Shown one piece after another: positions 75 through 12,963 of a stretch of 16,743 nucleotides of DNA (its first letter is position 1; each line of letters begins with the position of its first letter). Origin of the DNA: Thermotogota bacterium (lineage in GTDB: Bacteria; Thermotogota; Thermotogae; Petrotogales; Petrotogaceae); the NCBI GenBank assembly GCA_051748045.1, contig JBNJGY010000045.1, positions 1 to 16,743 of the forward strand, given 5' to 3'. Below the pieces are notes generated by a model that ran no database searches, was not told the DNA's origin, and saw only the letters and a program-made list of their open reading frames with translations. Both the position numbers and the translations under genes were made by a program.

Positions 75-114
75 AAAATGGTGGATATATAAAAATATAT
101 ATCCACCATTTTTT
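75..114. terminator. Bidirectional intrinsic terminator between convergent hydrolase and TetR genes
   Basis: Perfect 17-bp inverted repeat AAAATGGTGGATATATA (75-91) / TATATATCCACCATTTT (96-112) with a 4-nt loop and A/T runs on both sides, lying between two convergent stop codons. Confidence 0.9.
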
Positions 115-1237
115 ATTTTTTTATTCCGTTTATCATATGACATTTTAATTCTTTAATTATTTCTTTTTCGTCTAGTATTTTTTCTAAATAAAACTTTTCA
201 ATACCCATATAATGAGATATACCCATTAATATATTAGATATTAATACATTAGAATTATATTTTATATCTTTCAAATTTTTCAAATAACCTTTTTCAAAAC
301 TTTCATAATAATCTTTAACGTCTTTATTTACGACAAATTCTGCTTCTCTAACTATTTCATAATAATCTTTGTTTTGAGAGAAGAACTTCAAAAATAAATA
401 GATACCCCTTAGCTCTTTTTCAAATCTATTTATAGAACTTGTAGTATTTTTAGTGATAAATCTTCTTGTTACTTTACTAATCTTTTTAACTATGGTAGAT
501 AAAAATTCTTCTTTAGAATTAAAATAAATATAAAAGGTTCCAATGGCATAACCAGCGTCTTTAACTATATCATAGATATTTACATTATAATATCCTTTAC
601 TCCCAAATAACTCTATACCTGATTTTAATAATCTATTTCTTGTATCATCTCTTTCTTTTTTATCAACACAATCTGTATCTTCATCAAAAACATTATCAAA
701 GTTTACTTCTTGATTATAAAAAATACCATTTAAAATAATTTCTTTTAATTGATTTTTTTGATATTCTTTTCCATTAAAGAGATTCCTTATGTTGATAAAC
801 CGAGTAGCGCCTGCAATATATAGATATTCAGCTTCAGAAATGTCTCTATTAAAAATTCTAGAAATTCCTGTTATATAAATTCTTCTCAATCTTTTTTCGT
901 ATTCCGGAAATCTATATTGAGCTTCTCTATATATAATAATCTGTTTTCTATATTTAAGAGCGCTTTCAATAACAATATCCAAAAATTTATTTAATCTATC
1001 TTCTATAGTAACTCCACGAATTGAATTAAATTCTCTTTCGAAAAATTTAATTATTTCATTAAGCTGATATTCAAATATTCCTTTTTTGTTCCTAAAATAT
1101 CTATAAAAAACTCCATTAGAAACCCCTGCTTCCCTACATATTTCAGCTACAGAAACAGTTTCAAACCACTTTTTTGAAAACAAATCACGTGAGGCATCTA
1201 TTAACTTTTCTAATGTTTCTGTTCTTCTCCTAGACAT
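113..1237 (-). CDS. TetR/AcrR-family transcriptional regulator with two tandem TetR modules
   Basis: N-terminal HTH (LIDASRDLFSKKWFETVSVAEICREAGVSNGVFYRYFRNK) and a second HTH near aa 197 (TRNRLLKSGIELFGSKGYYNVNIYDIVKDAGYAIGTFYIYFNSKEE). 374 aa is about twice a normal TetR. RBS AGGAG upstream of the ATG. Confidence 0.92.
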   Translation of the reverse strand: MSRRRTETLEKLIDASRDLFSKKWFETVSVAEICREAGVSNGVFYRYFRNKKGIFEYQLNEIIKFFEREFNSIRGVTIEDRLNKFLDIVIESALKYRKQIIIYREAQYRFPEYEKRLRRIYITGISRIFNRDISEAEYLYIAGATRFINIRNLFNGKEYQKNQLKEIILNGIFYNQEVNFDNVFDEDTDCVDKKERDDTRNRLLKSGIELFGSKGYYNVNIYDIVKDAGYAIGTFYIYFNSKEEFLSTIVKKISKVTRRFITKNTTSSINRFEKELRGIYLFLKFFSQNKDYYEIVREAEFVVNKDVKDYYESFEKGYLKNLKDIKYNSNVLISNILMGISHYMGIEKFYLEKILDEKEIIKELKCHMINGIKK

Positions 1238-1250
1238 CTTAAAGACTCCT

Positions 1251-2957
1251 TTAAGCTAAAAAACTAAGTAATTCTTTCTTGAATAATTCTGGATCTTCTA
1301 TTATTATAGAATGACCAACATGTTCATAATATTTTAATTCTCCATTTAATTTTTCTAATGTTTTTTTTGCCATATCTTTGCTTACTAATAAATCTTTTTT
1401 ACCAACGAAATAAAGAACTGGATTTTTAAAGTTTTCAGCAATATCAGAATAATCATAAGATTCTAAAGCTCTTGCGTTTTCAGTAAAGCATCTAGGATTC
1501 ATTAAAATTGCTTCATTAGTCAATATATTTAACATTTTTTTATCATTAGAAGATGGCATGGTTCCTTTTAATGAACTTTTTAATAATGATTTACTTGTTT
1601 TTAGTAGTTGTAATCCATTATAATTTTCTTCAGGAGTATTTAATCCATCAACAGGGGCTGAATCAACTAAAACCAATTTTTTAACCATTTCTGGATTATT
1701 ATAAGCTAAAGATTGAGCAACAGCTCCTCCAAGTGAATGAGCAACTAATATTGCTTTTTCTATTCCAATATTTTTCATAAATGCTTTAACATAATCAGCA
1801 TAAGTATCTATTTCAATATTTTCAATTCTATCAGAATGCCCAAAATTAGGTAAATCTAAAGCATAAGTTTTATAACCTTTTAAATCATTTACTTTATCAA
1901 ACCATCTATGTGAACCAAAGTTACCATGTATCATTATAACAGGTTCACCATTACCATTAACATTATAGTAAATATCTTTCCCATTAACAGTGGTTTTTTG
2001 AGAAGGTTTTGATTTTTCCTTCCAAATAAATTTAGTTATTTCAATAACAGGTCTTTCAAAATATTTATAATATCCCATGATTATTCCATATATTAATCCT
2101 TTTGGGAAGAATAAAACAAATATTATTAATAAAGTACCAAATATTACAGACATTGGTATATCAGTTCTTGAGAATAAGAAAGGCATTCCTGTTATAATAA
2201 ATGCTCCAATTAATCCACCCTCAATCGAAGCTAATCCACCTATTACAATCATTGCCAGTAAATTTAAAGATGTTGCTAGTGCAAAATCTGTAGGACCAAT
2301 ATAACCAATTGTATGAGCATATAATGCTCCAGCAATACCACCATAAACTGCAGAAACTATGAAAGCTTCTAATTTTGTTGTTGATATCCTCTTACCAAAA
2401 GATCTAGCTGCATATTCACTGTCCCTAGTCATTTGATAAGATATTCCATTTGGTGATTTGATTAATTTAGTTGCTATATAAGATAAAACTACATAAAAGG
2501 CTAAATTCAGTACATACATCCAAAAATCATTAGGCATTATATCTGGTATATCTCTAAGACCTATATGTCCTCCAAATACTTCTACTGAAGCTATCAGCTG
2601 TTCTACTGTAATACCAAAAGCCATAGTTGCAATAGCCAAATAGAAACCTTTTAATCTAAGTGCTGGAATTGATATAATTGCACCTAATACTCCAGAAAAG
2701 ACAATTGCTACAATTAAATTTAAAATAAAAGGAGTTCCAAAAGTTAAAGACATATAAGCTGTTGTATAAGCTCCTATTGCCATAAAAGCTGCATGTCCAA
2801 TTGACAATTGCCCTGTATATCCTATAAGGATATTTAATCCCATTGAGGCTATACCAAAAATAAATACTGAAGATAAAATCATTAAAAAGAATGATTCTTG
2901 TATGAAAATTATACCTAATAATAAACCAAAAATTAATAATAAAACTGATTTCTTCAT
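1251..2957 (-). CDS. LivM-like ABC permease fused to a C-terminal alpha/beta-hydrolase
   Basis: aa 1 to ~295 are hydrophobic with LivM motifs (GYTGQLSIGHAAFMAIGAY, LRLKGFYLAIAT, MIVIGG). aa ~320-568 form a hydrolase with HGN oxyanion motif, ALDLPNFGHS, nucleophile AHSLGG, GKKD acid and HVGH His. One uninterrupted ORF. Confidence 0.9.
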   Translation of the reverse strand: MKKSVLLLIFGLLLGIIFIQESFFLMILSSVFIFGIASMGLNILIGYTGQLSIGHAAFMAIGAYTTAYMSLTFGTPFILNLIVAIVFSGVLGAIISIPALRLKGFYLAIATMAFGITVEQLIASVEVFGGHIGLRDIPDIMPNDFWMYVLNLAFYVVLSYIATKLIKSPNGISYQMTRDSEYAARSFGKRISTTKLEAFIVSAVYGGIAGALYAHTIGYIGPTDFALATSLNLLAMIVIGGLASIEGGLIGAFIITGMPFLFSRTDIPMSVIFGTLLIIFVLFFPKGLIYGIIMGYYKYFERPVIEITKFIWKEKSKPSQKTTVNGKDIYYNVNGNGEPVIMIHGNFGSHRWFDKVNDLKGYKTYALDLPNFGHSDRIENIEIDTYADYVKAFMKNIGIEKAILVAHSLGGAVAQSLAYNNPEMVKKLVLVDSAPVDGLNTPEENYNGLQLLKTSKSLLKSSLKGTMPSSNDKKMLNILTNEAILMNPRCFTENARALESYDYSDIAENFKNPVLYFVGKKDLLVSKDMAKKTLEKLNGELKYYEHVGHSIIIEDPELFKKELLSFLA

Positions 2958-2959
2958 AC

Positions 2960-3841
2960 TCAGACTCTCCCTTCAAATTTAGATCCAAAGAGGCCTGTAG
3001 GTTTAACAACAAGCACTACGATTATTAAAATCAATATTATAGATAATTGATAATCTGGGGATATATAATACCCAACTAATTTTTCCATTATACCTAATAA
3101 TAATCCTCCAACTATAGCTCCAAATAAGTTATAAAATCCACCTAAAACTCCAGCAGTAAACCCATATAATTGGTAATTAACCATCATATTGGGATGAACA
3201 TTAGTTTTAGGTGCTGCTAATACAGCAACTAAAGCAGCTAATCCGATACCTATTCCCCATACAATTGAGTCAACCTTATTTATATTAATACCTACCACAC
3301 TAGCTCCTACTTCATCTTGTGATCTTGCTCTGATAGCGGTTCCTAATTTAGTATATTTTAAGAATAAAGCCAAAGCAATTGTAACTGATAAAGCAATAAC
3401 CATGTTTACCAAATCATTCATAGGTAATACTAATAAACTGTCTCCTAAGTTAAATAATAAAGGAGCGCTTTCTGTTATCTGTGGAAATTGATAATAGTCA
3501 GTTCCCCAAATAATTATTGCTAATCCTTCAAATATCATTAATAATCCTAAAGTTATAATAAGCATTGCTCCATGAGATAGATGTTTAACTGGTCTCATCA
3601 AAAACTTTTCTATTAGTTGAGCTAAAATAAAACCAAATAAAATAGCTCCTATAATAGCAACAAAAATATTTTGTGTCCACCCATATACGGTAAAAGCAAA
3701 AAATGCAGACATCATACCAGCAGATCCATGAGCAAAGTTCATAACAAATACTGTTTTAAATATTAAAGCAATCCCAAAAGCCATTAATCCATATAATGCA
3801 CCTTGAGGTATGCCTAATAAGACATTTTGTATAAAAGCCAT
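2960..3841 (-). CDS. LivH-like branched-chain amino acid-type ABC permease
   Basis: Motifs GALYGLMAFGIALIF..VMNFAHG, TKLGTAIRA, GVLGG, KPTGLFG. ATG at 3841 preferred over TTG at 3844 because it sits 4 nt from the GGGGTGA RBS, the same spacing as the binding-protein gene. Confidence 0.92.
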   Translation of the reverse strand: MAFIQNVLLGIPQGALYGLMAFGIALIFKTVFVMNFAHGSAGMMSAFFAFTVYGWTQNIFVAIIGAILFGFILAQLIEKFLMRPVKHLSHGAMLIITLGLLMIFEGLAIIIWGTDYYQFPQITESAPLLFNLGDSLLVLPMNDLVNMVIALSVTIALALFLKYTKLGTAIRARSQDEVGASVVGININKVDSIVWGIGIGLAALVAVLAAPKTNVHPNMMVNYQLYGFTAGVLGGFYNLFGAIVGGLLLGIMEKLVGYYISPDYQLSIILILIIVVLVVKPTGLFGSKFEGRV

Positions 3842-3851
3842 CAAATCACCC

Positions 3852-4544
3852 CTATATTCCTAAATACGCTTTTTTAACTGATTCATCATTCAATAAATCT
3901 TTTGCGTTTCCTTCTGTTGCTACTTTACCAATTTCTAATATATATGCTCTATCACTTATTTTCAATGATTTTAATGCATTTTGTTCTACTAAAAGTATCC
4001 CAACATCCATTTCTTTTAACTGAACCAAAACTTCAAAAATTTCATCTGTTATTAAAGGAGCTAATCCTAATGAAGGTTCATCCAGCATTAATATTTCTGG
4101 AGAACTCATTAAAGCTCTTCCAACTGCAAGCATTTGTTGTTCTCCACCTGATAATGATCCAGCTGCTTGTTTTTTTCTATCATTTAAAATAGGAAACAAT
4201 TTATAAACTTTTTGAAAGTTTTCTTTTTCATTACCTCTTACAAAACTACCTAACTTTAAATTTTCTTCTACAGATAACTGTGGAAAAACTCTTCTGTTTT
4301 CTGGAGCTAAAACTAATCCCTTTTTTACTTTTTCTTCTGTAGATGCTTTTGTCAAATTTTCTCCATTAAATTCAATATTTGCAGAGGATTTTATTATTCC
4401 CATAGTACCGAATAAAGTAGATGTTTTTCCTGCGCCATTAGCTCCAAGAATACTAACAATTTCACCTTTATCAATATTAAAAGAAATATCTTTTACAGCA
4501 GCAACATGACCATAATTTACTTTTAAATTATTAACTTTAAGCAT
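3852..4544 (-). CDS. LivF-like ABC transporter ATP-binding protein
   Basis: Walker A GANGAGKT, signature LSGGEQQM, Walker B LMLDEPSLGLAP, VEQN switch typical of LivF. Confidence 0.95.
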   Translation of the reverse strand: MLKVNNLKVNYGHVAAVKDISFNIDKGEIVSILGANGAGKTSTLFGTMGIIKSSANIEFNGENLTKASTEEKVKKGLVLAPENRRVFPQLSVEENLKLGSFVRGNEKENFQKVYKLFPILNDRKKQAAGSLSGGEQQMLAVGRALMSSPEILMLDEPSLGLAPLITDEIFEVLVQLKEMDVGILLVEQNALKSLKISDRAYILEIGKVATEGNAKDLLNDESVKKAYLGI

Positions 4545-5292
4545 TTTCGCTCTCCCCCAAATACACTTTTATAACTTCTTCGTTGTTTCCTATTTCTTCT
4601 GGTGTTCCTTCAGCAATTTTTTCACCAAAACTCATAACAGTAATTCTATCTGAAACTTGCATAACTAAATTCATATCATGTTCAACTAGTAAAATGGTTT
4701 TACCGTTATTTTTTAATAATTTCATTATATCTCTAATTTCTGAGGTTTCGTTATGATTCAACCCTGCTGCGGGTTCATCAAACAATAAAATTTTTGGATT
4801 GGATACAATTGCTCTAGCAATTTCAACTCTTTTTAAAATACCATAAGGAAGTGATGATGGATAAGAATTTAATCTATTTTTTATTTGTAATAATTCAGCA
4901 ATTTCTAAAATTTTCTCCCTTGCTATTGTTTCAAAATGTGATCTTTTTTTAGAAAAAAGGTAAAATATATTTTTATCATAATTATGTAGATAACCAGATA
5001 ATATGTTGTTATAAACATTCATCCCTTTAAATAACTGTAAGTTTTGGAATGTTCTACTTATGCCTTTATATATAATTTGATCCGGTCTAGTTTGCATTAA
5101 AGAATTTCCTTCAAAATTAACTTCTCCCTCTACAGGTTCCAAAACTCTAGTAATTACATTAAATAATGTAGTTTTCCCAGCACCATTAGGACCTATTAAA
5201 GAGTGAATAATTCCTTTTTTCACATTCATACTCATATCTTTTACAGCTATCAAACCACCAAAAGATACAGTGACATTTTTAACTTCTAACAT
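4537..5292 (-). CDS. LivG-like ABC transporter ATP-binding protein
   Basis: Walker A GPNGAGKT, RTFQN, LPYG signature, LLFDEPAAG, VEHDM. Overlaps the next gene by 8 nt. Confidence 0.95.
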   Translation of the reverse strand: MLEVKNVTVSFGGLIAVKDMSMNVKKGIIHSLIGPNGAGKTTLFNVITRVLEPVEGEVNFEGNSLMQTRPDQIIYKGISRTFQNLQLFKGMNVYNNILSGYLHNYDKNIFYLFSKKRSHFETIAREKILEIAELLQIKNRLNSYPSSLPYGILKRVEIARAIVSNPKILLFDEPAAGLNHNETSEIRDIMKLLKNNGKTILLVEHDMNLVMQVSDRITVMSFGEKIAEGTPEEIGNNEEVIKVYLGESENA

Positions 5293-5310
5293 TTATAATT
5301 ACACCCCTTT

Positions 5311-5337
5311 AAAAAAGCGGGGAAGTTTATTCCCCGC
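5311..5337 (-). terminator. Intra-operon GC-rich hairpin with U6 tail after the binding-protein gene
   Basis: GCGGGGAA (5317-5324) / TTCCCCGC (5330-5337), 5-nt loop. AAAAAA at 5311-5316 is a U6 tail on the minus-strand transcript. Confidence 0.8.
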
Positions 5338-5352
5338 ATTATTTAAATATGA

Positions 5353-6522
5353 TTAATATTCCATGTAGTATAGCCAGTCAGTTACTTTTTCAAATACTCC
5401 ATCTTTAATTTCCATAATGTACATAGAATCTTTACCAATTCTTGAAATATCTTTGTTAGGTCCTTCAAAGTCATAATAAGTAACACCTGTTGTTATGTCT
5501 CCTGACCAATTATCAAAAGTTTCTAAGGCGTCAACTAAAGTTTCTCTTGTTAGGTTATCTCCAGCTCTTTTTACGCCTTCTGTAAAAGTTTCAGCAGCTA
5601 TTAATCCTGCTACAGCGTAAGCGTTTGGAATTTCACCATTATTATATTTACCATAAATTTCTAATGCTGGAGTATCAGGGTCTGTGAAGTCTACATCAAC
5701 CCATGCCATTGATTTAACTCCTTCTGCATCTTTTCCTAATAAGTCAATGAATGAAACACTTGCGTTTGCATATGAAGTTACGTATTCAACATTTTTTAAG
5801 CCATATTGTTTAGCTTGTTTAATGAAGTTTGGTGCTTGTGTTCCATAAAGCATAACTCCAATAGCTTCCGGTCTGTTAGAAATTAATCTTGTAACTTCTG
5901 CTGAAAAATCTTCTGCGGAAGGATTTACTGGAATGAAAGTAGCATTAATTCCTCTTGATTCAAATAATTCTTTTGCTGCGTCTCTGAATTCTTTACCATC
6001 ATCTGCATTTCTGTAAACAATTGCAATTTTTGTATATCCAATATCAGCAAAATAATTAGCAACAATGTTTCCTTCTACAGTATAGTTTGGTTGAACTGGA
6101 AAAATGAATTCTTTAGCTGGGAAACTTAATAATGATGTTCCCGCACCTTGATAAACAAAAGGTACTTCATTACTGTTTAGATATTCCATAACAGCTAAAA
6201 CACCTGGTGTTCCTAATCCCCCAACAATTGAAAAAACCTCATCACTTTCAACTAATCTTTTTACTTCAACTGTTGTTTTTGCTGGTGAAAATTGGTCATC
6301 TGCTACTAGTAAGTTAATTTTTCTTCCGTTTACTCCTCCATTATCGTTTACCCAATTAAAGTATGCTTCCATACCTTTTGTCATAGGTTGTCCGATAAAT
6401 GATATAGGACCAGATAAAGCTTGGAAAGAACCAATGAGAATTTCATCATCTGTTACTCCAACTTCAGCAAAAAGTCCCACTACCATGAGTAAAGCTACCA
6501 TAAGTGTTAATACCTTTTTCAT
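5353..6522 (-). CDS. ABC transporter substrate-binding protein, LivJ/LivK (periplasmic binding protein type 1) family
   Basis: Signal peptide MKKVLTLMVALLMVVGLFA|EVGVTDDEILIG, then ALSGP and VNDNGGVNGRKINLLVADDQFSP typical of the HAAT family. RBS GGGGTGA. Confidence 0.92.
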   Translation of the reverse strand: MKKVLTLMVALLMVVGLFAEVGVTDDEILIGSFQALSGPISFIGQPMTKGMEAYFNWVNDNGGVNGRKINLLVADDQFSPAKTTVEVKRLVESDEVFSIVGGLGTPGVLAVMEYLNSNEVPFVYQGAGTSLLSFPAKEFIFPVQPNYTVEGNIVANYFADIGYTKIAIVYRNADDGKEFRDAAKELFESRGINATFIPVNPSAEDFSAEVTRLISNRPEAIGVMLYGTQAPNFIKQAKQYGLKNVEYVTSYANASVSFIDLLGKDAEGVKSMAWVDVDFTDPDTPALEIYGKYNNGEIPNAYAVAGLIAAETFTEGVKRAGDNLTRETLVDALETFDNWSGDITTGVTYYDFEGPNKDISRIGKDSMYIMEIKDGVFEKVTDWLYYMEY

Positions 6523-6533
6523 AAGATCACCCC

Positions 6534-7742
6534 TTATTTTATATTACGTACTACAACTGCAGTACCCATGCCTCCTCCAATACAGAGAGAAGCCAATCCA
6601 ATTTCTTTTTCTTGTTTTTTCATTTCGTGTAGTAAAGTTACAATGATTCTGTTTCCTGACGCACCTATTGGATGTCCTAATGCTATTGCTCCACCATTTA
6701 CATTAGTTCTTTCAATAAACCAATTTTTATCTTTACCAAATTCTTGGCCTAATTCTTTAATTACTCCTAAAGATTGTGCAGCGAATGCTTCGTTTAATTC
6801 GATTAATTCTATATCCTCTATAGAAATATCGTTTTTACTTAAAACATTTTTTACAGCAGGAACTGGTCCTAATCCCATGTATGCTGGGTCTACTCCTGCT
6901 TCATCATAAGCAACTAATTCAGCGATTGGTTTTAGATTATATTTTTCTACAGCTTCTTCAGATGCTAATATTATAGCACTTGCACCATCGTTAATCCCAG
7001 AAGCATTAGCAGCTGTAACAGAACCATCCTTTTTGAATGCAGGTCTTAGTTTTGCTAAACCTTCTATTGTTGCGTTTAATCTTGGGTGTTCATCAGTATC
7101 AAAAAGAAGTGTACCTTTTCTTGTTTTTATTTCATAAGGTATAATTTCATCTTTAAATTTTCCTTCTTCGATTGCTTTTTGAGTTCTATTTTGAGAAATA
7201 ACAGCAAATTCATCTTGTTCTTCTCTAGATAAATTGTGTTTTTCTGCAATATTTTCTGCCGTCATTCCCATGTGATAGTTATTAAAAACATCAGTTAATC
7301 CATCTAAAATCATATGATCAAGCATTTTTTGATGACCAAATTTACTTCCAAATCTATTTTTAGAATCAATCATTAAAGGCGCTTGTGACATATTTTCGAT
7401 CCCAGCTGCAACTACTATTTCTGCGTCTCCAACTTTTATATCAGTAGCTCCAATCATAACTGATTTCATACCACTTCCGCAGAGCATATTAACAGCGTAA
7501 GCGGGTTTATTTTCAGGAATACCTGCATATAAAGCTACTTGTCTACCTGGACCCATTCCTTCGCCAGCTTGTAGAACATTACCTACTATTGTTTTATCTA
7601 CATAATCTGGTTTAACATTTGATTCTTCTAAAATTGTTTTAACTACATGAGCACCTAATTTTGTAGCTGGTTCATTTTTTAATGTACCACCAAAAGTTCC
7701 AATAGCAGTTCTCTTAGCAGCAACTATAAATACTTTTCTCAA
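6534..7742 (-). CDS. Acetyl-CoA C-acetyltransferase (thiolase II; ThlA/AtoB/PhaA-like)
   Basis: Catalytic motifs NMLCGSG, NASGINDGA, ELNEAFA, GGAIALGHPIGASG, LCIGGGMG. TTG start with GGAGGA RBS. Confidence 0.95.
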   Translation of the reverse strand: MRKVFIVAAKRTAIGTFGGTLKNEPATKLGAHVVKTILEESNVKPDYVDKTIVGNVLQAGEGMGPGRQVALYAGIPENKPAYAVNMLCGSGMKSVMIGATDIKVGDAEIVVAAGIENMSQAPLMIDSKNRFGSKFGHQKMLDHMILDGLTDVFNNYHMGMTAENIAEKHNLSREEQDEFAVISQNRTQKAIEEGKFKDEIIPYEIKTRKGTLLFDTDEHPRLNATIEGLAKLRPAFKKDGSVTAANASGINDGASAIILASEEAVEKYNLKPIAELVAYDEAGVDPAYMGLGPVPAVKNVLSKNDISIEDIELIELNEAFAAQSLGVIKELGQEFGKDKNWFIERTNVNGGAIALGHPIGASGNRIIVTLLHEMKKQEKEIGLASLCIGGGMGTAVVVRNIK

Positions 7743-7754
7743 GACAATTCCTCC

Positions 7755-9071
7755 TTATAATATGTAACCAATTTCTTTTGCTTCCTTTTTCAATTGATCT
7801 CTAAAATCTGGATGAGCTATTGAAATTAATAATTCAACTCTTTCAGCTAAACTCTTTCCTCTTAAATGAGCTACTCCATATTCAGTTACTACATAATCTA
7901 TATCATGTCTTGGAACTGATATCGTTGCACCTCTTGGATGAGCTACAGTAATTGTCGATATTTTACCGTCTTTAGCAGTAGATCTTAAAGCTATTATTCC
8001 TTTTCCGTTCTTACTTTTTATAGCTCCTCTATGAGTATCGAGTTGGCCACCTGTTCCAGAAAATTGTTTTGTACCTATAGCTTCACTCACAACTTGTCCT
8101 TGTAGATCCACAGAAATTGCAGTATTTATAGAAACCATATTATCATTTTGTGCTATTACATATGGATCATTAACATAATTACCTTTCATTACCCAAACTC
8201 CAGGATTATTATTCAACCATTTATACATTCTTTTTGAACCAAGTGCAAATGTACAAATTGATTTACCTTTCCAAAGTGTTTTATTAGTATTCGTTATTGC
8301 TCCACTTTCAAAAAGATCTATCATTGATTCTGTAAACATTTCAGTATGTACACCAAGATCTTTTTTATGATCAAGAAGTTTTGCAACTGCATTAGGAATT
8401 CCACCAATTCCAATTTGGATAGTTGATCCATCTTCCACTAAATCAGCAATAAACTGAGCAATTGTTATTTCTGTTTCCGTTGGTTCTACAATTGGTAGTG
8501 GTGGTACTTCCCAACTGCTTTCAACAATCATATCAGCTTTGTTAATATGTACACCAGTTTCTCCGTGTATAAAAGGCATTTGATCATTAACTTCAAAAAT
8601 AACTTTATCTGCTTGTTCCATTACTTCCATTTCATAAACATTAGATAAACCTAAATTAAAAAAACCATTTTCTTCAAGCATTGGAGCTACAGCACCCCAA
8701 AAAACTAATGTTCTTCCTTCTTCTTTCTCTGCAACTAATTTATCAGTTCCAGCCATATGTAAGTTGTTAGGTATATAATCTACTGTTTTTAAATCATTTT
8801 TTCTTGCTTTTCTTGTTGGTGGGCTGAAAAACCAAGAATGATTGTTCATTTTGTCTTCATATTCTTTGTCTGCAAAAAAAGGATATTCTTTCATATTTAA
8901 ACAAGTCAAAACTCTTAGTGAATCAAAGTGATCTTTATATTTATGAACATTGCTTAAAAAACCTTGAGCTTCTGTTGCGGCTAATCCAACAACTACTGTT
9001 ACTGTTTTTGGCAATGATAATATTGCTTCTTCTATAGATTTTAATTTATTATTATATACATCTTTCCACAT
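7755..9071 (-). CDS. Acetyl-CoA hydrolase/transferase family protein (4-hydroxybutyrate CoA-transferase Cat2/AbfT-like)
   Basis: DGSTIQIGIGGIPNAVA, LGVHTEM (catalytic Glu), SGTGGQLD, DYVVTEYGVAHLRGK, LISIAHPDFR. Confidence 0.9.
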   Translation of the reverse strand: MWKDVYNNKLKSIEEAILSLPKTVTVVVGLAATEAQGFLSNVHKYKDHFDSLRVLTCLNMKEYPFFADKEYEDKMNNHSWFFSPPTRKARKNDLKTVDYIPNNLHMAGTDKLVAEKEEGRTLVFWGAVAPMLEENGFFNLGLSNVYEMEVMEQADKVIFEVNDQMPFIHGETGVHINKADMIVESSWEVPPLPIVEPTETEITIAQFIADLVEDGSTIQIGIGGIPNAVAKLLDHKKDLGVHTEMFTESMIDLFESGAITNTNKTLWKGKSICTFALGSKRMYKWLNNNPGVWVMKGNYVNDPYVIAQNDNMVSINTAISVDLQGQVVSEAIGTKQFSGTGGQLDTHRGAIKSKNGKGIIALRSTAKDGKISTITVAHPRGATISVPRHDIDYVVTEYGVAHLRGKSLAERVELLISIAHPDFRDQLKKEAKEIGYIL

Positions 9072-9091
9072 TTATTATCCCCTCACAATTC

Positions 9092-9832
9092 TTATAATAC
9101 TGTACCACCATTTACACTTAAAACATGCCCTGTTATATAAGATGCTTCTTCTGAAGCTAAGAAAAATACAGCATCTGCAATTTCTGATGATTCACCCATT
9201 CTGCCTAAAGTAACTTTTTTTGCTATCGCGTCTAATACTTTTTCAGGCATTTTTTCTGTCATAGGAGTTTTTATAAATCCTGGAGCAACTGCATTCACTC
9301 TTATATTTGCACCTTTTCTTGCAAATTCTTTAGCCCATGAATATGTCATTGAAATAACTCCACCTTTAGTTGCAGCATAGTTAGTTTGTCCGATATTTCC
9401 TTTTTCTCCAACTATAGAAGAGATATTCACTACATTACCTTCACCATTTTCTAACATCGTTGGAACTATCGCTTGTGTCATATTGAAAACACCCTTTAAG
9501 TTAACGTTTAATACGAAATCCCAATCTTCTTCTGACATTTTTTGAATTAAAGCGTCTCTTGTTACTCCTGCATTATTAACTAATATATCTATTTTTCCAT
9601 ATTCATTTTTTACATTATCTACAAATTCTTTTATAGCATCTCTATTAGTAACATCTAAAACATAGCCTTTTACATTAGAAAATTCTTTTTCGACTTCTTT
9701 TAAAGCTTCTTCATTCATATCAATAGCGAAAACCACTTTTGCTTCTTCTTTAGCCATTTTAGAAACTATTGATAAACCAATTCCTCTTGCTCCACCTGTA
9801 ACGACACATACTTTGTCTTTCATTCTATTCAT
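9092..9832 (-). CDS. Classical SDR, FabG/PhaB-like 3-oxoacyl (acetoacetyl)-CoA/ACP reductase or 3-hydroxyacyl-CoA dehydrogenase
   Basis: TGGARGIG, NNAGVTRD, NISS, GNIGQTNYAATK (YxxxK), VNAVAPGFIKT. Confidence 0.9.
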   Translation of the reverse strand: MNRMKDKVCVVTGGARGIGLSIVSKMAKEEAKVVFAIDMNEEALKEVEKEFSNVKGYVLDVTNRDAIKEFVDNVKNEYGKIDILVNNAGVTRDALIQKMSEEDWDFVLNVNLKGVFNMTQAIVPTMLENGEGNVVNISSIVGEKGNIGQTNYAATKGGVISMTYSWAKEFARKGANIRVNAVAPGFIKTPMTEKMPEKVLDAIAKKVTLGRMGESSEIADAVFFLASEEASYITGHVLSVNGGTVL

Positions 9833-9865
9833 GATGATACCTCCTAATGTATTTTGAAATTTTTA

Positions 9866-10879
9866 TTAACCTTTATATTCTCCCCAATGAACATGAGCTG
9901 CGGCCCAAACAAACCCTATTCCAGCTCCAACCATTATTACATCGTCTCCATCGTGAAGTCTTCCTTCTTCAAGCGCTATTTTCATTGATAAAACTTGATC
10001 ATTTTGTCCTATGTGCCCATATTTTTGAAGATATGTAGTTTGATCTTCTTCTAAACCAAATTCTTCAATAACAGCATCATGAGATGATTTCTTGAAATGT
10101 AAAATAGCTAAATAATCAATATCTTTATCTGTTTTATCAGATTCTGCTAATGCTTCTCTGATAACTGCATAGAAATTAGGCATAGTTCTTTCACCAAGTT
10201 TTTGTTTAAATGAATCAACATCATCTATAACAAAATGCATTTTATCTGCATCTTCTGGTTTCATAGGCCAATTTTTTGTTCCACCAACAGGTACAACACA
10301 ATCTTCAGAAAAATCACCGTCTCCTTTGAATGCAGTTCCTAAAATAACATTTTTATTAAAGTCTTTCCTAAGCAACATAGCAGCTCCACCAGCTCCTATA
10401 TCGAACATAAAAGATGTTTCAGCTACTTTATAATCTATTAAATCTCCGTTTCTATAACCACTTACTAGTAAAGCGGTTTTATATTTTTTATTTCCCAATA
10501 ATAATGATTTTGCTGTTTCCATTCCAGCCATCATAGAACCACACATTGCTTCCATATCAAAACCCCAAGCATTTTTAGCTCCTATTTCGTCAGCAACTTT
10601 CAAACTAGCTAACCAACATGGATAATCTTTGTGCTGGGCTCCATTCCAGATTACAATATCAATTTCTTCAGGATTAATTCCTGATTCCTCAATAGCTTCC
10701 TTAGCAGCTTGAATTCCCATATAACTTGTTGTATCTTTTTTTCCTGGAATAGGTTTTTTACTAACTCCAAATTTTTCTCTAATAACCCATTCTGGTATAC
10801 CTGATTTTTCTGCTATTTCATCAGATGTAATATAATTATCCGGAATGTATATTCCCATTCCCATTATTCCAACGTTCAC
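9866..10879 (-). CDS. FabH/KAS III-like (thiolase-fold) enzyme with a non-canonical active site
   Basis: GMGIYIP N-terminus, catalytic AMCGS, GAGGAA, LAILH, YGHIGQNDQ where FabH has YGNT, and C-terminal VGAGIGFVW. GTG start with GAGGTGA RBS. Confidence 0.88.
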   Translation of the reverse strand: MNVGIMGMGIYIPDNYITSDEIAEKSGIPEWVIREKFGVSKKPIPGKKDTTSYMGIQAAKEAIEESGINPEEIDIVIWNGAQHKDYPCWLASLKVADEIGAKNAWGFDMEAMCGSMMAGMETAKSLLLGNKKYKTALLVSGYRNGDLIDYKVAETSFMFDIGAGGAAMLLRKDFNKNVILGTAFKGDGDFSEDCVVPVGGTKNWPMKPEDADKMHFVIDDVDSFKQKLGERTMPNFYAVIREALAESDKTDKDIDYLAILHFKKSSHDAVIEEFGLEEDQTTYLQKYGHIGQNDQVLSMKIALEEGRLHDGDDVIMVGAGIGFVWAAAHVHWGEYKG

Positions 10880-10925
10880 TTTAAAATCACCTCTTTATTA
10901 ATCTAATAAAAACCATATATTATAT

Positions 10926-10943
10926 AATGAATCACTTCTCATT
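10926..10943. promoter_or_regulatory. Candidate TetR operator O1 (AATGA-N8-TCATT)
   Basis: AATGAATCACTTCTCATT is an imperfect palindrome overlapping the -10 box and the predicted transcription start. Confidence 0.6.
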
Positions 10944-10969
10944 TTAATATATTTTAATCTTTTTTTCAA
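10941..10969 (-). promoter_or_regulatory. Predicted sigma70-type promoter of the 10-gene operon
   Basis: Minus strand reads TTGAAA (10969-10964), 17 nt, TAAAAT (10946-10941), about 60 nt upstream of the GTG start. Confidence 0.7.
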
Positions 10970-11081: not shown

Positions 11082-11114
11082 AAAAAAGACGGTTTTTTAA
11101 AAACCGTCTTTTTT
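11082..11114 (-). terminator. Intrinsic terminator overlapping the end of the PfkB-like gene
   Basis: AAAAAAGACGGTTTTT (11082-11097) / AAAAACCGTCTTTTTT (11099-11114) inverted repeat spanning the TAA at 11097-11099, with a U6 tail on the minus strand. Confidence 0.8.
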
Positions 11115-11855
11115 TTCTAATGTTTTAATCTTATTATACGCGCCTTTAATTTCATTTGTCATCTCAATCTTTTCAATAATTTTATATAAATTATTATTAC
11201 TGATTCTATTCTTTAAATAATAATCTATAAAAATTACATCTAAAAGATCGCCAGTACCAAATTTATACTTAAATTTTTTCCCGTTTGAAGGATAGAATTC
11301 ATCTTTATAATAAAAACCTTCTATATCCATTTTTCCAAGAGCAATGAGATCTGTTGATATTTCACTATCTTTATTAGATATTAGAATATGATTATCTTTT
11401 TTAAAATAATTTTTCAGAATAAAATGCCTAGGCCCACTGTCAATAAAAATCAACTTATAATCTAAATTGATAATTTTATCGAAATCATTTTTATTAATTT
11501 CCGTATTTACAAAAGCATATTCAGCTTTTTTTTGTGGGAATTTAATATCTTTTTCATTATTATTTCTCTGAATTGCAAAAGGCTTTTCATTTTGGCTAAT
11601 AAAAATATCTGATTTTTCATTTCTAATATTTAGTAAATCTATATTTATACCTTTATCTTTTAATATTTTTAAAGTCGTATTGGCATTTTCATCATTACCA
11701 ATATTTCCAATAAATCTAACTTTATTTTTCAATATGGATAGTCCTAGAGCAATATTAAAACCAGATCCACCAGGAAATATATCAATTTGTTTTTTATGAG
11801 GTGTATCACCATTTATATAAATATCTGTAAATACACCCCCATAAACGTCAATCAT
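11097..11855 (-). CDS. Divergent PfkB/ribokinase-family carbohydrate kinase
   Basis: PGGSGFNIALGLSILKNKVRFIGNIGND matches PfkB signature 1. GTGD matches the anion-hole/catalytic Asp motif. Short (252 aa) and degenerate in the middle. Confidence 0.72.
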   Translation of the reverse strand: MIDVYGGVFTDIYINGDTPHKKQIDIFPGGSGFNIALGLSILKNKVRFIGNIGNDENANTTLKILKDKGINIDLLNIRNEKSDIFISQNEKPFAIQRNNNEKDIKFPQKKAEYAFVNTEINKNDFDKIINLDYKLIFIDSGPRHFILKNYFKKDNHILISNKDSEISTDLIALGKMDIEGFYYKDEFYPSNGKKFKYKFGTGDLLDVIFIDYYLKNRISNNNLYKIIEKIEMTNEIKGAYNKIKTLEKKDGF

Positions 11856-11856
11856 T

Positions 11857-12963
11857 TTAAATTTTTATTAAATTATAATCAGTTGTTCCCATTCCCATTT
11901 CTTCACCATAACTTATTTGCACATAACCTTGAGAATTTTCTCTCATGCCAACGAACTTATCCTTTCCAGGTTCAAAGTTATTTTTTAGATGAGATCCTTC
12001 AAAACCATGTTGATTATTTACTAGATCATAGCAAGCTTTATCCAAAGCTATTGGATCTTTTGAAGCTAAAATACCAATATCTGGAACTATTGGTGCATCA
12101 GACCAAGGAGCACAATCACAGTCCGGAGTTACTTTCATAACAAAATTAATATAGCCAACTTTATCTTTTTTATTTTTTACAGCACCATATGCGTATTCTG
12201 TCATTCTTTCCATAAAGTCTTTTATTTCTGTTTTCCAATTAACCCCTATAGCATCTACAGGACAAACTTGCATACATTCTCCACAACCTATACATTTACT
12301 AACGTCTATTTGTGCTTTTCCTTCAATCATAGTAATTGCATTTTCAGGGCAGTTATTTACACATGTTTGGCATCCTATACAAGAATCTTTATCAACTTTT
12401 GGCCTCATAGAATGTTGTTGCATTTTTCCTACCCTTGGAGCACAACCCATGGCAATATTCTTTAACGCTCCACCAAATCCAGCAAGCTCATGACCTTTAA
12501 AATGAGACATAACAATCATGCTATCTGCATTTTCTATATCTCTTGCTATTTTAACTGTTTTAAAATTTTTTTGATTAATCTCAACATCAGATATATTTTT
12601 ACTCAACATTCCATCTGCAATAATAACAGGAGCACCAATAACTGAGTATACAAAACCGTGTTCAGTAGCAGTTACCAAATGATCAACAGAATTTTTTCTC
12701 TCACCTTTATATAAGGTATTTGTATCAGTTGCAAAAGGTTTACCTTTCGCTTCTTTTACCTTATCTACAACTGGTCTTACAAATACAGGACTTATAAATC
12801 CGTCATTACCTCTTTCGCCAAAATGAATTTTTATTGCAGTTAAATCATTTTCACTTATCAAATCTGCAAATCCTGCTCTTTCAAATAATCTTTTAATTTT
12901 ATTTACTTTATTATCTTGCGGTTTTCTAGCTCTTAAATCTGCAAAATAAACTTCTGCTGCCAT
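11857..12963 (-). CDS. DUF362-domain Fe-S protein with an inserted 2x[4Fe-4S] ferredoxin domain
   Basis: AIKIHFGE, TDTNTLY, SHFKGH..GFGGALKN.AMGCA, two CxxCxxCxxxCP motifs (CIGCQTCVNNCP, CIGCGECMQVCP), PDCDC, DIGILASKDPIALD. Confidence 0.88.
   Translation of the reverse strand: MAAEVYFADLRARKPQDNKVNKIKRLFERAGFADLISENDLTAIKIHFGERGNDGFISPVFVRPVVDKVKEAKGKPFATDTNTLYKGERKNSVDHLVTATEHGFVYSVIGAPVIIADGMLSKNISDVEINQKNFKTVKIARDIENADSMIVMSHFKGHELAGFGGALKNIAMGCAPRVGKMQQHSMRPKVDKDSCIGCQTCVNNCPENAITMIEGKAQIDVSKCIGCGECMQVCPVDAIGVNWKTEIKDFMERMTEYAYGAVKNKKDKVGYINFVMKVTPDCDCAPWSDAPIVPDIGILASKDPIALDKACYDLVNNQHGFEGSHLKNNFEPGKDKFVGMRENSQGYVQISYGEEMGMGTTDYNLIKI

Follow-up and report, generated by a model that had tools for sequence, protein, structure and literature searches.

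The locus described here raises the question of which compound is handled by an operon that joins enzymes annotated for fatty-acid synthesis to an importer annotated for branched-chain amino acids. It lies in a Thermotogota bacterium of the family Petrotogaceae (assembly GCA_051748045.1, contig JBNJGY010000045.1); the window, i.e., the whole stretch of DNA that was analysed, covers 16,743 nucleotides from position 1 of this contig, and all coordinates refer to it. The operon is real, deeply conserved and misnamed by automatic annotation, and a catabolic function is favoured. We tentatively propose, as a reading that falls somewhat short of probable, that it is a self-regulated catabolic module for a small carboxylate other than an amino acid, which arrives as an ester, oligomer or lactone and most likely consists of (R)-3-hydroxybutyrate or -valerate units, such as the breakdown products of polyhydroxybutyrate (PHB). 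The substrate class "hydroxy-acid ester, oligomer or lactone" is well supported, while 3-hydroxybutyrate units are our best single guess and no more. The annotation names "3-oxoacyl-ACP synthase" and "branched-chain amino acid" importer are probably wrong here. The operon runs on the minus strand from 10879 to 113 and consists of ten tightly packed, co-oriented open reading frames (ORFs) flanked on both sides by terminator hairpins; from first to last gene they read:

9866..10879, minus strand: enzyme like beta-ketoacyl-acyl carrier protein synthase III (KAS III), hereafter K, of family NF005308/PRK06840, with the Asn of FabH changed to His; signature gene of the module
9092..9832, minus strand: FabG/PhaB-like short-chain dehydrogenase/reductase (SDR) with a NAD-type Asp38, a paralog of housekeeping FabG
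7755..9071, minus strand: family I coenzyme A (CoA)-transferase of the 4-hydroxybutyrate / butyryl-CoA:acetate type (AcetylCoA_hyd_C; 3eh7, 328 bits)
6534..7742, minus strand: thiolase II of the acetoacetyl-CoA thiolase type (TIGR01930)
5353..6522, minus strand: HAAT-family substrate-binding protein with a signal peptide, without the alpha-amino contacts of LivJ
4537..5292, minus strand: LivG-type ABC ATPase (family scans)
3852..4544, minus strand: LivF-type ABC ATPase (family scans)
2960..3844, minus strand: LivH-type permease (family scans)
1251..2957, minus strand: whole ORF of a LivM-hydrolase fusion
2058..2957, minus strand: LivM-type permease part of the fusion, about residues 1-300 (BPD_transp_2 at residues 25-282)
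1251..2027, minus strand: alpha/beta hydrolase domain at the LivM C-terminus, about residues 311-568, with a Ser-Asp-His triad and an HGN oxyanion motif
113..1237, minus strand: double TetR, two complete TetR units in one chain (two TetR_N, about residues 12-56 and 193-260)

According to the ORF coordinates, neighbouring genes are 2-33 nt apart or, in one case, overlap by 8 nt, the sole exception being the 60 nt between the binding-protein gene and livG. The importer comprises Peripla_BP_6, two BPD_transp_2 and two ABC_tran domains (one with BCA_ABC_TP_C), which is the full five-part set of the HAAT family. ORF calls and family scans thus bear out the ten tightly packed co-oriented genes, with their families, that had been described from the sequence at the outset. 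The same holds for what was said to be missing: acyl carrier protein (ACP), FabD, FabZ, acyl-CoA dehydrogenase, crotonase and PhaC were all absent among the window ORFs in the family scans, the genome holding a type II fatty-acid synthesis (FAS II) cluster elsewhere.

Is this assembly of genes more than an accident of one genome? K, which is the most conserved and the most constant member of the module and hence its signature gene, reaches 469 bits against the NF005308/PRK06840 model (cut-off 315) and has its best match in Geotoga (93% identity). It exceeds the family cut-off in 35 of the 41 genomes of the order, and among the 18 loci of the order that were fetched, 16 hold K, SDR, CoA-transferase, thiolase and LIV (Leu/Ile/Val-type importer) genes together, the remaining two being one without the thiolase only and one with K alone. 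A pattern scan of species genomes gave 321 relatives of K, of which the best 80 loci were kept (Thermotogota, Spirochaetota and metagenome-assembled genomes [MAGs] of Clostridia/Bacillota); counts of component classes use the 28 of these loci in which K is flanked by 9 kb or more on either side. All six classes are present in 17 of the 28, and taken singly LIV genes occur in 25-27, CoA-transferase in 26, TetR in 25, SDR in 24, hydrolase in 23 and thiolase in 21. The gene order is reshuffled between lineages and the set stays together. Because the set recurs in 16 of 18 loci of the order and in three phyla (Thermotogota, Spirochaetota and Bacillota), it is far from chance, and the operon is one conserved functional unit. 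The original prediction had treated the genes as a single system, which stands: far from being conserved nowhere else, the set recurs across phyla and on haloarchaeal plasmids. K was also seen without the rest of the module, in a Marinitoga-like (M. piezophila-like) genome (G018; locus L018, C1:879000-895000), where it sits between an MFS transporter gene and a gene for a Fe-hydrogenase/MCP fusion, and in one Bacillota locus (L147).

More distant relatives reveal which parts of the module are constant and which can be exchanged. Around a Firmicutes MAG, 301 genomes of another phylum were sampled; K exceeds the cut-off in 25 of them, and in nine of the ten K loci fetched from this sample K (34-48% identical) adjoins HAAT genes. 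These Bacillota variants carry an AMP-forming ligase in the place of the CoA-transferase and an NHL/SGL beta-propeller in that of the alpha/beta hydrolase, and add, in the SDR's place, a MaoC-type (R)-specific hydratase gene whose stop overlaps the start of K. A search of plasmids for K returned 12 records, ten of them haloarchaeal, and in both haloarchaeal loci that were opened K directly follows two HAAT permease genes. On the Salarchaeum plasmid the order is MaoC, alpha/beta hydrolase, AMP-ligase, regulator, binding protein, two ATPases, two "branched-chain amino acid" permeases and K; on the Halobaculum plasmid K follows the permeases and precedes a propeller protein and an acyl-CoA dehydrogenase. 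Such exchange of the activating enzyme and the hydrolase for non-orthologous counterparts, while K and the HAAT importer stay paired, is typical of a catabolic route for an external substrate, and the MaoC hydratases of the variant modules point to an (R)-3-hydroxyacyl-CoA intermediate.

In the route that we propose, the HAAT ABC system would import the compound, and the Ser-Asp-His hydrolase borne on the cytoplasmic end of LivM would open its ester bonds during entry. The Cat2-type CoA-transferase, going by its family, would load the free hydroxy acid onto CoA with acetyl-CoA as donor; the SDR, which bears the NAD signature, would convert (R)-3-hydroxyacyl-CoA into 3-oxoacyl-CoA; and thiolase II would cleave the latter to acetyl-CoA, with ATP presumably gained via acetate formation. 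The double TetR would repress the operon at a conserved motif until a CoA ester of the pathway appears.

The first of these steps depends on what the binding protein recognises. Twenty-five module binding proteins (46-56% identical to that of the window) were aligned by hhalign to E. coli LivJ/LivK, which gave a probability of 99.1% at 20% identity. LivJ Glu226, Thr102 and Tyr18 align to invariant Tyr251, Gly128 and Ile43 of the module proteins, and LivJ Ser79 and Tyr202 to Thr105 and Tyr/Phe226. These five LivJ residues are the ligand contacts reported in the LivJ/LivK crystal papers, and their positions fit the LivJ sequence; Glu226 and Thr102 hold the alpha-ammonium group. Since the alpha-amino contacts are replaced by invariant Tyr and Gly, this comparison argues against an alpha-amino acid ligand, and the module protein appears unlike a Leu/Ile/Val binder, in agreement with the earlier assumption that the importer is not of the Leu/Ile/Val type. 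It follows that we see little merit in the explanation closest to the automatic annotation, namely an ordinary branched-chain amino-acid importer whose accompanying enzymes handle branched acyl-CoAs, the transfer of CoA to acetate providing ATP and K serving as a branched-primer FabH. The LivG, LivF, LivH and LivM models are indeed the best family matches, all of them under their cut-offs, and Spirochaeta isovalerica, a fermenter of branched-chain amino acids, carries K. The changed contacts nevertheless tell against it, as do the LivJ-type subfamily model (67 bits against a cut-off of 477), the absence of an aminotransferase or 2-oxoacid oxidoreductase from the operon and the rewired active site of K, and we grant this explanation only the slightest chance. 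The likeness to E. coli LivJ-HMGF is one of five-part HAAT architecture and families; the module differs by its binding protein, 20% identical and devoid of the alpha-amino contacts, by the hydrolase fused to LivM and by the setting of its genes inside an acyl-CoA operon. The module is served by two HAAT subtypes (L012-L030 and L035-L114), and some loci hold both: in the first the order is binding protein, G, F, H, M (45-59% identical to the window's), in the second binding protein, H, M, G, F (22-34%).

The hydrolase, which makes up the C-terminal end of the second permease (Abhydrolase_1 at residues 339-556), raises the question of where and on what it acts. Ser98, Asp212 and His239 together with His34-Gly35-Asn36 (domain numbering) are invariant in all 46 hydrolase sequences; such a triad and oxyanion motif are common to most alpha/beta hydrolases. 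In 27 loci LivM and the hydrolase are fused in a single open frame, and because the hydrolase is a separate gene in 33 matches elsewhere, it is a member of the pathway and not an accident of fusion. The stand-alone hydrolases of the spirochaete loci leave no room for a signal peptide and the linker of the window's fusion is rich in Lys and Arg; on both grounds we place the hydrolase in the cytoplasm, and therefore it would act inside the cell on the imported compound. A hydropathy-based topology of the fusion protein was dropped as a basis for this placement after a crude script had given unusable segments. For all three hydrolases scanned, the window's and two stand-alone ones, the best, sub-threshold NCBIfam match is NF050089, an intracellular depolymerase of short-chain-length polyhydroxyalkanoates (PHA), and the best solved relative by sequence (72 bits) and by fold is PhaZ of B. 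thuringiensis (8ynv). Aryl esterases, perhydrolases, a feruloyl esterase, an N-acyl homoserine lactone lactonase and an enol-lactonase follow PhaZ within one order of E-value.

Such a spread of relatives also suits another explanation, in which the same architecture and logic serve a different small oxygenated acid: a lactone, a beta-keto-acid ester, a 3-oxoadipate-like or triacetate-like compound from polyphenol breakdown, or an aromatic-acid ester. The hydrolase matches 3-oxoadipate enol-lactonase, BioH, the C-C hydrolases BphD/HsaD and aryl/feruloyl esterases at similar strength, and the propellers that stand in for it in the Bacillota variants are of the lactonase/arylesterase kind. Hydrolase, CoA-transferase and thiolase mirror PcaD, PcaIJ and PcaF, the thiolase matching pcaF models (389 bits, below the cut-off), and many of the solved HAAT binding proteins among the matches of the window's binding protein are binders of aromatic acids. 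The thiolase and the CoA-transferase, however, are nearest to C4-type enzymes, the MaoC hydratases of the variants speak for (R)-3-hydroxyacyl-CoA, and no ring-reducing or decarboxylating enzymes are found among the window ORFs. We regard this explanation as doubtful but deserving of serious attention. The comparison with the lower beta-ketoadipate pathway shows how far it can be taken: the order of the chemistry is the same, with opening by a hydrolase, CoA transfer and cleavage by a thiolase, and hydrolase and thiolase match PcaD/PcaF models, whereas the scores are far below the cut-offs, the module has a single-chain Cat2 enzyme and not PcaIJ, it adds an SDR and a KAS III-like enzyme, and its hosts are strict anaerobes.

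To return to hydroxy acids of the 3-hydroxybutyrate kind, the three enzymes that follow K in the operon were compared with those of known routes. The SDR falls just below the cut-off of the FabG model TIGR01830 (297.7 against 297.75 bits) and reaches 218 bits against the PhaB model, as the thiolase reaches 420 bits against the PhaA model, both under the family cut-offs. An Asp closes strand beta-2 (Asp38) in all 66 module SDRs and in none of four FabG paralogs, three in FAS clusters and one further, which carry Ser or Ala at that position. An acidic residue here is the classical marker of SDRs that prefer NAD over NADP, and such a NAD-type enzyme would fit the oxidation of a 3-hydroxyacyl thioester better than a biosynthetic reduction. 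The CoA-transferase (AcetylCoA_hyd_C, 212 bits) has 4-hydroxybutyrate CoA-transferases as its best solved relatives (3eh7, E 6.7e-97, 328 bits, residues 6-432) and butyryl-CoA:acetate CoA-transferase as its best NCBIfam match (TIGR03948, 287 bits, below the cut-off of 674.8); it is predicted to be a single-chain family I enzyme of the Cat2 type, a placement by family and not by substrate. The thiolase scores 488.5 bits against TIGR01930 (cut-off 240.55), is nearer to PhaA/BktB models than to FadA models, and has in its translation the Cys, His and Cys motifs at their usual positions.

These assignments recall the mobilisation of PHB, in which B. thuringiensis PhaZ (8ynv), PhaB and PhaA correspond to hydrolase, SDR and thiolase. 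The module differs in that its scores lie below the cut-offs, its SDR bears the NAD-type Asp and is not of the NADPH type, its hydrolase is tethered to a transporter and not to a granule, and the genome has no PhaC. The source genome (G000), which is 99.65% complete, indeed lacks both types of PhaC and any ECH_1 crotonase, and offers no convincing Hbd, so that only short 3-hydroxy and 3-oxo acids of external origin could enter the route. The closer precedent is the fermentation of 3-hydroxybutyrate and PHB by Ilyobacter. Its enzyme route, reportedly worked out by Janssen and Schink in 1993, is said to comprise CoA transfer, oxidation of 3-hydroxybutyryl-CoA and thiolysis, which would be the same three enzyme types as in the operon. 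It differs in coming from enzyme assays, not from genes, and no KAS III-like enzyme, HAAT importer or transporter-fused hydrolase is on record for it. According to one report, the anaerobes Ilyobacter polytropus and I. delafieldii convert external 3-hydroxybutyrate to acetate (and butyrate) (PMC10096456).

The same enzymes could, in principle, belong to an endogenous fermentation. Contig C63 of the source genome (1-8490) carries ACP, an indolepyruvate-type ferredoxin oxidoreductase (two subunits) and, in a row, acyl-CoA dehydrogenase, EtfB, EtfA and MaoC hydratase before the contig ends, and reduction of (R)-3-hydroxybutyryl-CoA to butyryl-CoA could proceed through the dehydrogenase, Etf and MaoC. 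Thiolase, (R)-SDR, CoA-transferase and this Bcd-type branch would then make 3-hydroxybutyrate or butyrate as an electron sink, and the transporter would be a mere neighbour. Besides the row of genes itself, the best NCBIfam match of the CoA-transferase is in keeping with such a branch. We nevertheless rejected the dehydrogenase, Etf and MaoC genes as partners of K, since acyl-CoA dehydrogenase occurs in only 13 of the 41 relatives and in none of the 16 of the second family, compared with 35 of 41 for K; moreover, the dehydrogenase of the same-genus genome G001 is a neighbour of the FAS cluster, the transporter and hydrolase are the most constant partners of K, archaea included, and the hydrolase-LivM fusion ties the enzymes to import. 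A fermentation branch of this kind is, in our view, very improbable. In the same-genus locus (L031) about 6 kb separate the acyl-CoA dehydrogenase from the FabG-FabD-FabK-FabZ-DegV-FabF-TetR cluster.

What, then, is the role of K, to which the route of the original prediction assigned none? K has the fold of FabH: its AlphaFold model (pLDDT 87.1) retrieves FabH structures as top Foldseek matches (8vd9, E 3.6e-28, TMq 0.83), BioZ and FabH2 appear among the fold matches, and CerJ and DpsC among the sequence matches. The curated FabH model TIGR00747 gives 133 bits and does not reach its cut-off of 292.1. Cys113 of K aligns to Cys112 of E. coli FabH and is invariant in 14 of 14 close relatives, the nucleophile being Ser in 2 of 13 members of the wider family. 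In hhalign the invariant His261 of K sits one column from FabH His244, and FabH Asn274 aligns to the invariant His289 both in HMMER (with B. subtilis FabHA) and in hhalign (with E. coli FabH). None of the 13 K sequences compared, which come from Thermotogota, Bacillota and haloarchaea, departs from His261, His289 or Asp294. Asn293, close by, varies across the wider family, and polar residues are conserved in the loop that corresponds to the acyl-pocket loop of FabH. The Asn of FabH (Asn274 in E. coli) is needed for the decarboxylation of malonyl groups, and KAS III-fold enzymes that have lost it, CerJ and DpsC, are acyltransferases and not condensing enzymes.

It was attractive to regard K and the SDR as housekeeping FabH and FabG, since the source genome shows no FabH-like gene besides K; the operon SDR is also its best FabG match (297 against 121 bits). 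The FAS II cluster of this genome comprises FabF, DegV, FabZ, FabK and FabD on contig C70 (1-7096) and two ACP genes. C70 ends 22 bp after fabD, where the corresponding cluster of the same-genus genome G001 goes on to a FabG sharing only 45% identity with the operon SDR, so that the copy of the source genome was most likely lost in an assembly gap; C63 and C70 are probably neighbours, with the housekeeping fabG in the gap between them. The housekeeping reading was rejected on the strength of this separate FabG, of the relatives without K (G007 and G008), which keep their FAS cluster with FabG, and of a canonical FabH over the cut-off elsewhere in four of five other spirochaete/firmicute hosts. 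Kosmotoga olearia is reported to have a FabH, Kole_0969, within its own FAS cluster (PMC5674127). K is probably not a housekeeping FabH or primer synthase of fatty acids, and its occurrence on haloarchaeal plasmids also speaks against such a role.

A biosynthetic function of another kind would have the CoA-transferase activate an imported acid, K condense it with malonyl-ACP or malonyl-CoA and the SDR reduce the product, thereby providing an unusual primer for the synthesis of a lipid or metabolite. There are precedents: BioZ with CaiB acts in this manner for pimelate and Vibrio FabH2 for octanoyl-CoA. The FabH fold of K with BioZ and FabH2 among its matches, the retained Cys and probably His, the common adjacency of K and SDR, and the lack of any other FabH-like gene in the source genome, to which the Thermotoga maritima control genome adds no FabH match at all, all suit this idea. 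Weighed against these are the replacement of the FabH Asn by an invariant His and the Ser nucleophile of two K sequences, the hosts that have K in addition to a canonical FabH and the relatives that keep FAS without K, the NAD signature of the SDR, and the thiolase and hydrolase, which would be left without a role; furthermore, K occurs in haloarchaea, and the ACP model finds no match in the Haloferax control genome. The second KAS III-like gene that stands beside the CoA-transferase in many spirochaete and Bacillota modules (L040 16249-17235, L106 7675-8661, L144 7437-8414 and similar loci) also argues against it: in five of five sequences the Cys is kept, with Thr and Tyr where FabH has its His and Asn. 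We consider a condensing function in biosynthesis improbable. BioZ with its CaiB-type CoA-transferase (pimeloyl-ACP) and FabH2 of Vibrio cholerae do resemble the module in pairing a KAS III fold with an unusual supplier of acyl-CoA. They keep Cys-His-Asn and use malonyl-ACP, unlike K with its His at the Asn site and its occurrence in haloarchaea. The related proposal that the whole system might run in reverse, with K synthesising esters, likewise fits poorly with an importer, a hydrolase and a NAD-type SDR.

K may therefore be better compared with CerJ and DpsC, which have the KAS III fold with Asp in place of the Asn (DpsC with a Ser nucleophile) and transfer acyl groups to or from oxygen without condensation. 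The loss of the Asn is shared with K, and the Ser of DpsC with two K sequences; the differences are that K has His at this position and its invariant Asp five residues later, and that CerJ and DpsC are seated in antibiotic gene clusters and K in uptake operons. The loss of the Asn in these enzymes is a lead that K, too, moves acyl groups; given its Cys (or Ser), its His, the His at the Asn site and the invariant Asp, acyl transfer is more likely than a condensation of malonyl units. The product of the second KAS III-like gene might be a partner of K, in the way that PqsB is of PqsC. It is tempting to speculate that K hands the acyl half of an ester-linked hydroxyacyl-CoA directly to CoA and so saves the energy of the ester bond. 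In its full form, in which the PRK06840 proteins would form a new class of KAS III-fold enzymes, namely Cys(Ser)-His-His/Asp acyltransferases that move the acyl half of an imported oxygen ester (e.g., 3-hydroxybutyrate-dimer-CoA) to CoA, i.e., a thiolytic de-esterification coupled to HAAT import, this idea seems to us rather unlikely, though it is worth stating. If true, esters would become thioesters without ATP or a second CoA transfer, the gain of ATP per ester-linked unit would roughly double for an anaerobe, and this chemistry would be conserved from Thermotogota to haloarchaea.

Several observations weigh against the catabolic reading with 3-hydroxybutyrate units. Ligand, substrate and product are predictions from sequence and models. 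The argument on the binding protein consists of a profile alignment at 20% identity and of contact residues taken over from LivJ, and the stereospecificity of the SDR would follow from its likeness to FabG and PhaB only. For the hydrolase, the match to NF050089 amounts to only 95-118 bits (118.5 for the window's) against a cut-off of 300 and lies mainly in the N-terminal half; the fold comparison is a near-tie between 8ynv (E 1.7e-21, TMq 0.87) and the aryl esterase 8pi1 (E 8.7e-21, TMq 0.88); and the HGN..S..W motif common to PhaZ and the hydrolase is also typical of haloalkane dehalogenases. The lactonase-like propellers of the Bacillota variants point to lactones as much as to oligoesters. 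K adjoins the SDR in most layouts, which is the order expected of a condensation followed by a reduction. Within 9 kb, some modules lack SDR and thiolase, among them L042-type spirochaete loci, which are reduced to CoA-transferase, K, hydrolase, transporter and TetR between unrelated flanks; the three-enzyme route first put forward is therefore not the conserved core. Finally, no match to Esterase_PHB (PF10503) was found in the source genome or its genus, and this model gives only weak matches elsewhere (16 of 41 genomes). Without an extracellular PHB depolymerase the organism would depend on fragments made by others. Co-occurrence of K with this depolymerase was considered as support and discarded, the weak matches following no pattern with K.

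Taken together, the import, hydrolysis and activation of an outside compound, as originally predicted, keeps its footing in the single conserved unit, the non-LIV binding protein, the NAD-type SDR and the intact cytoplasmic hydrolase, and has to be amended in that K was given no role and that SDR and thiolase are absent from some modules. The narrower claim of a 3-hydroxybutyrate or PHB-oligomer substrate draws on PhaZ as the top match of the hydrolase and is weakened by the low score, by the near-tie with aryl esterases and by the missing Esterase_PHB.

The proposed self-regulation directs attention to the signals around and within the operon, in a window of 22-34% GC. They are:

11082..11110, minus strand: hairpin with T-run at the end of the upstream PfkB-like gene (ORF end at 11097), upstream limit of the operon, read directly
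10919..10969, minus strand: pair of overlapping sigma-70-like promoter matches within the 217 nt that precede the first gene, each with 10 of 12 hexamer positions matched; consensus only
10928..10945, minus strand: conserved motif of 18 nt flanked by the promoter hexamers, a candidate operator for the double TetR, from an alignment of four genera
5317..5337, minus strand: GC-rich hairpin (8 pairs, 6 of them G-C) with T-run between the binding-protein gene and livG
75..112, minus strand: terminator-like hairpin of 17 pairs after the last (TetR) gene

The single promoter that had been suggested is plausible in view of the two overlapping matches, although such matches are no commoner in the window than in shuffled sequence (98 against 104.7). 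The regulator is a 374-aa chain with two TetR_N stretches, in the place of which the Bacillota variants have a single TetR of 204 aa. All four aligned genera share the 18-nt block without change, two of them carry it twice in tandem, and it may be the operator of the double TetR. A regulon search with the motif in the source genome returned three further sites, one of which resembles a ribosome-binding site; near-copies precede genes for an MBL-fold hydrolase and a MscS-like channel (C23 near 7102, C59 near 1132) and provide no functional lead. For the 14-nt core, a rough estimate from base composition gives about 0.13 chance matches, and four were found.

A hairpin behind the binding-protein gene is in the usual spot for a device that yields more binding protein than membrane parts, and that at 5317-5337 is probably a partial terminator or stabiliser setting the ratio of binding protein to transporter. 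One metatranscriptome contig (5081-5378) reads across it. In four salt-lake metatranscriptome runs from two studies, short near-identical contigs (0-2 differences) match operon genes, some spanning gene junctions, and they cover the operon genes more than the flanks. They are a weak hint of transcription in nature; as contigs these RNA libraries may hold DNA and cannot rank expression, which again tempers the case for the catabolic module.

The other ORFs of the window encode a PfkB-like protein, a DUF362 Fe-S protein, a methyltransferase, a SDH_alpha-like protein and a C92 peptidase. Directly upstream of the operon, 11097-11855 encodes a short PfkB-like protein (252 aa), whose match to the kinase family is confined to the N-terminal third, and 11857-12963 a DUF362 protein with two 4Fe-4S motifs; both neighbours are kept beside the operon in the same genus only.

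The original prediction knew of no characterised operon of this make-up, and literature searches found no paper on the gene set or on PRK06840. Irrespective of the substrate, the module marks out a large, unstudied clade of KAS III-like enzymes whose active site has been rebuilt, and its LivM-hydrolase fusion is one of the rare instances in which an ABC importer bears a catalytic domain at its exit. Several of the hosts are in culture, which makes the hypothesis directly testable. If the proposed function is true, the module would provide the first gene-level account of the uptake and use of hydroxy-acid esters, such as fragments of PHA, by strict anaerobes and haloarchaea, and this would bear on the turnover of carbon in mats, sediments and digesters as well as on the anaerobic recycling of bioplastics.

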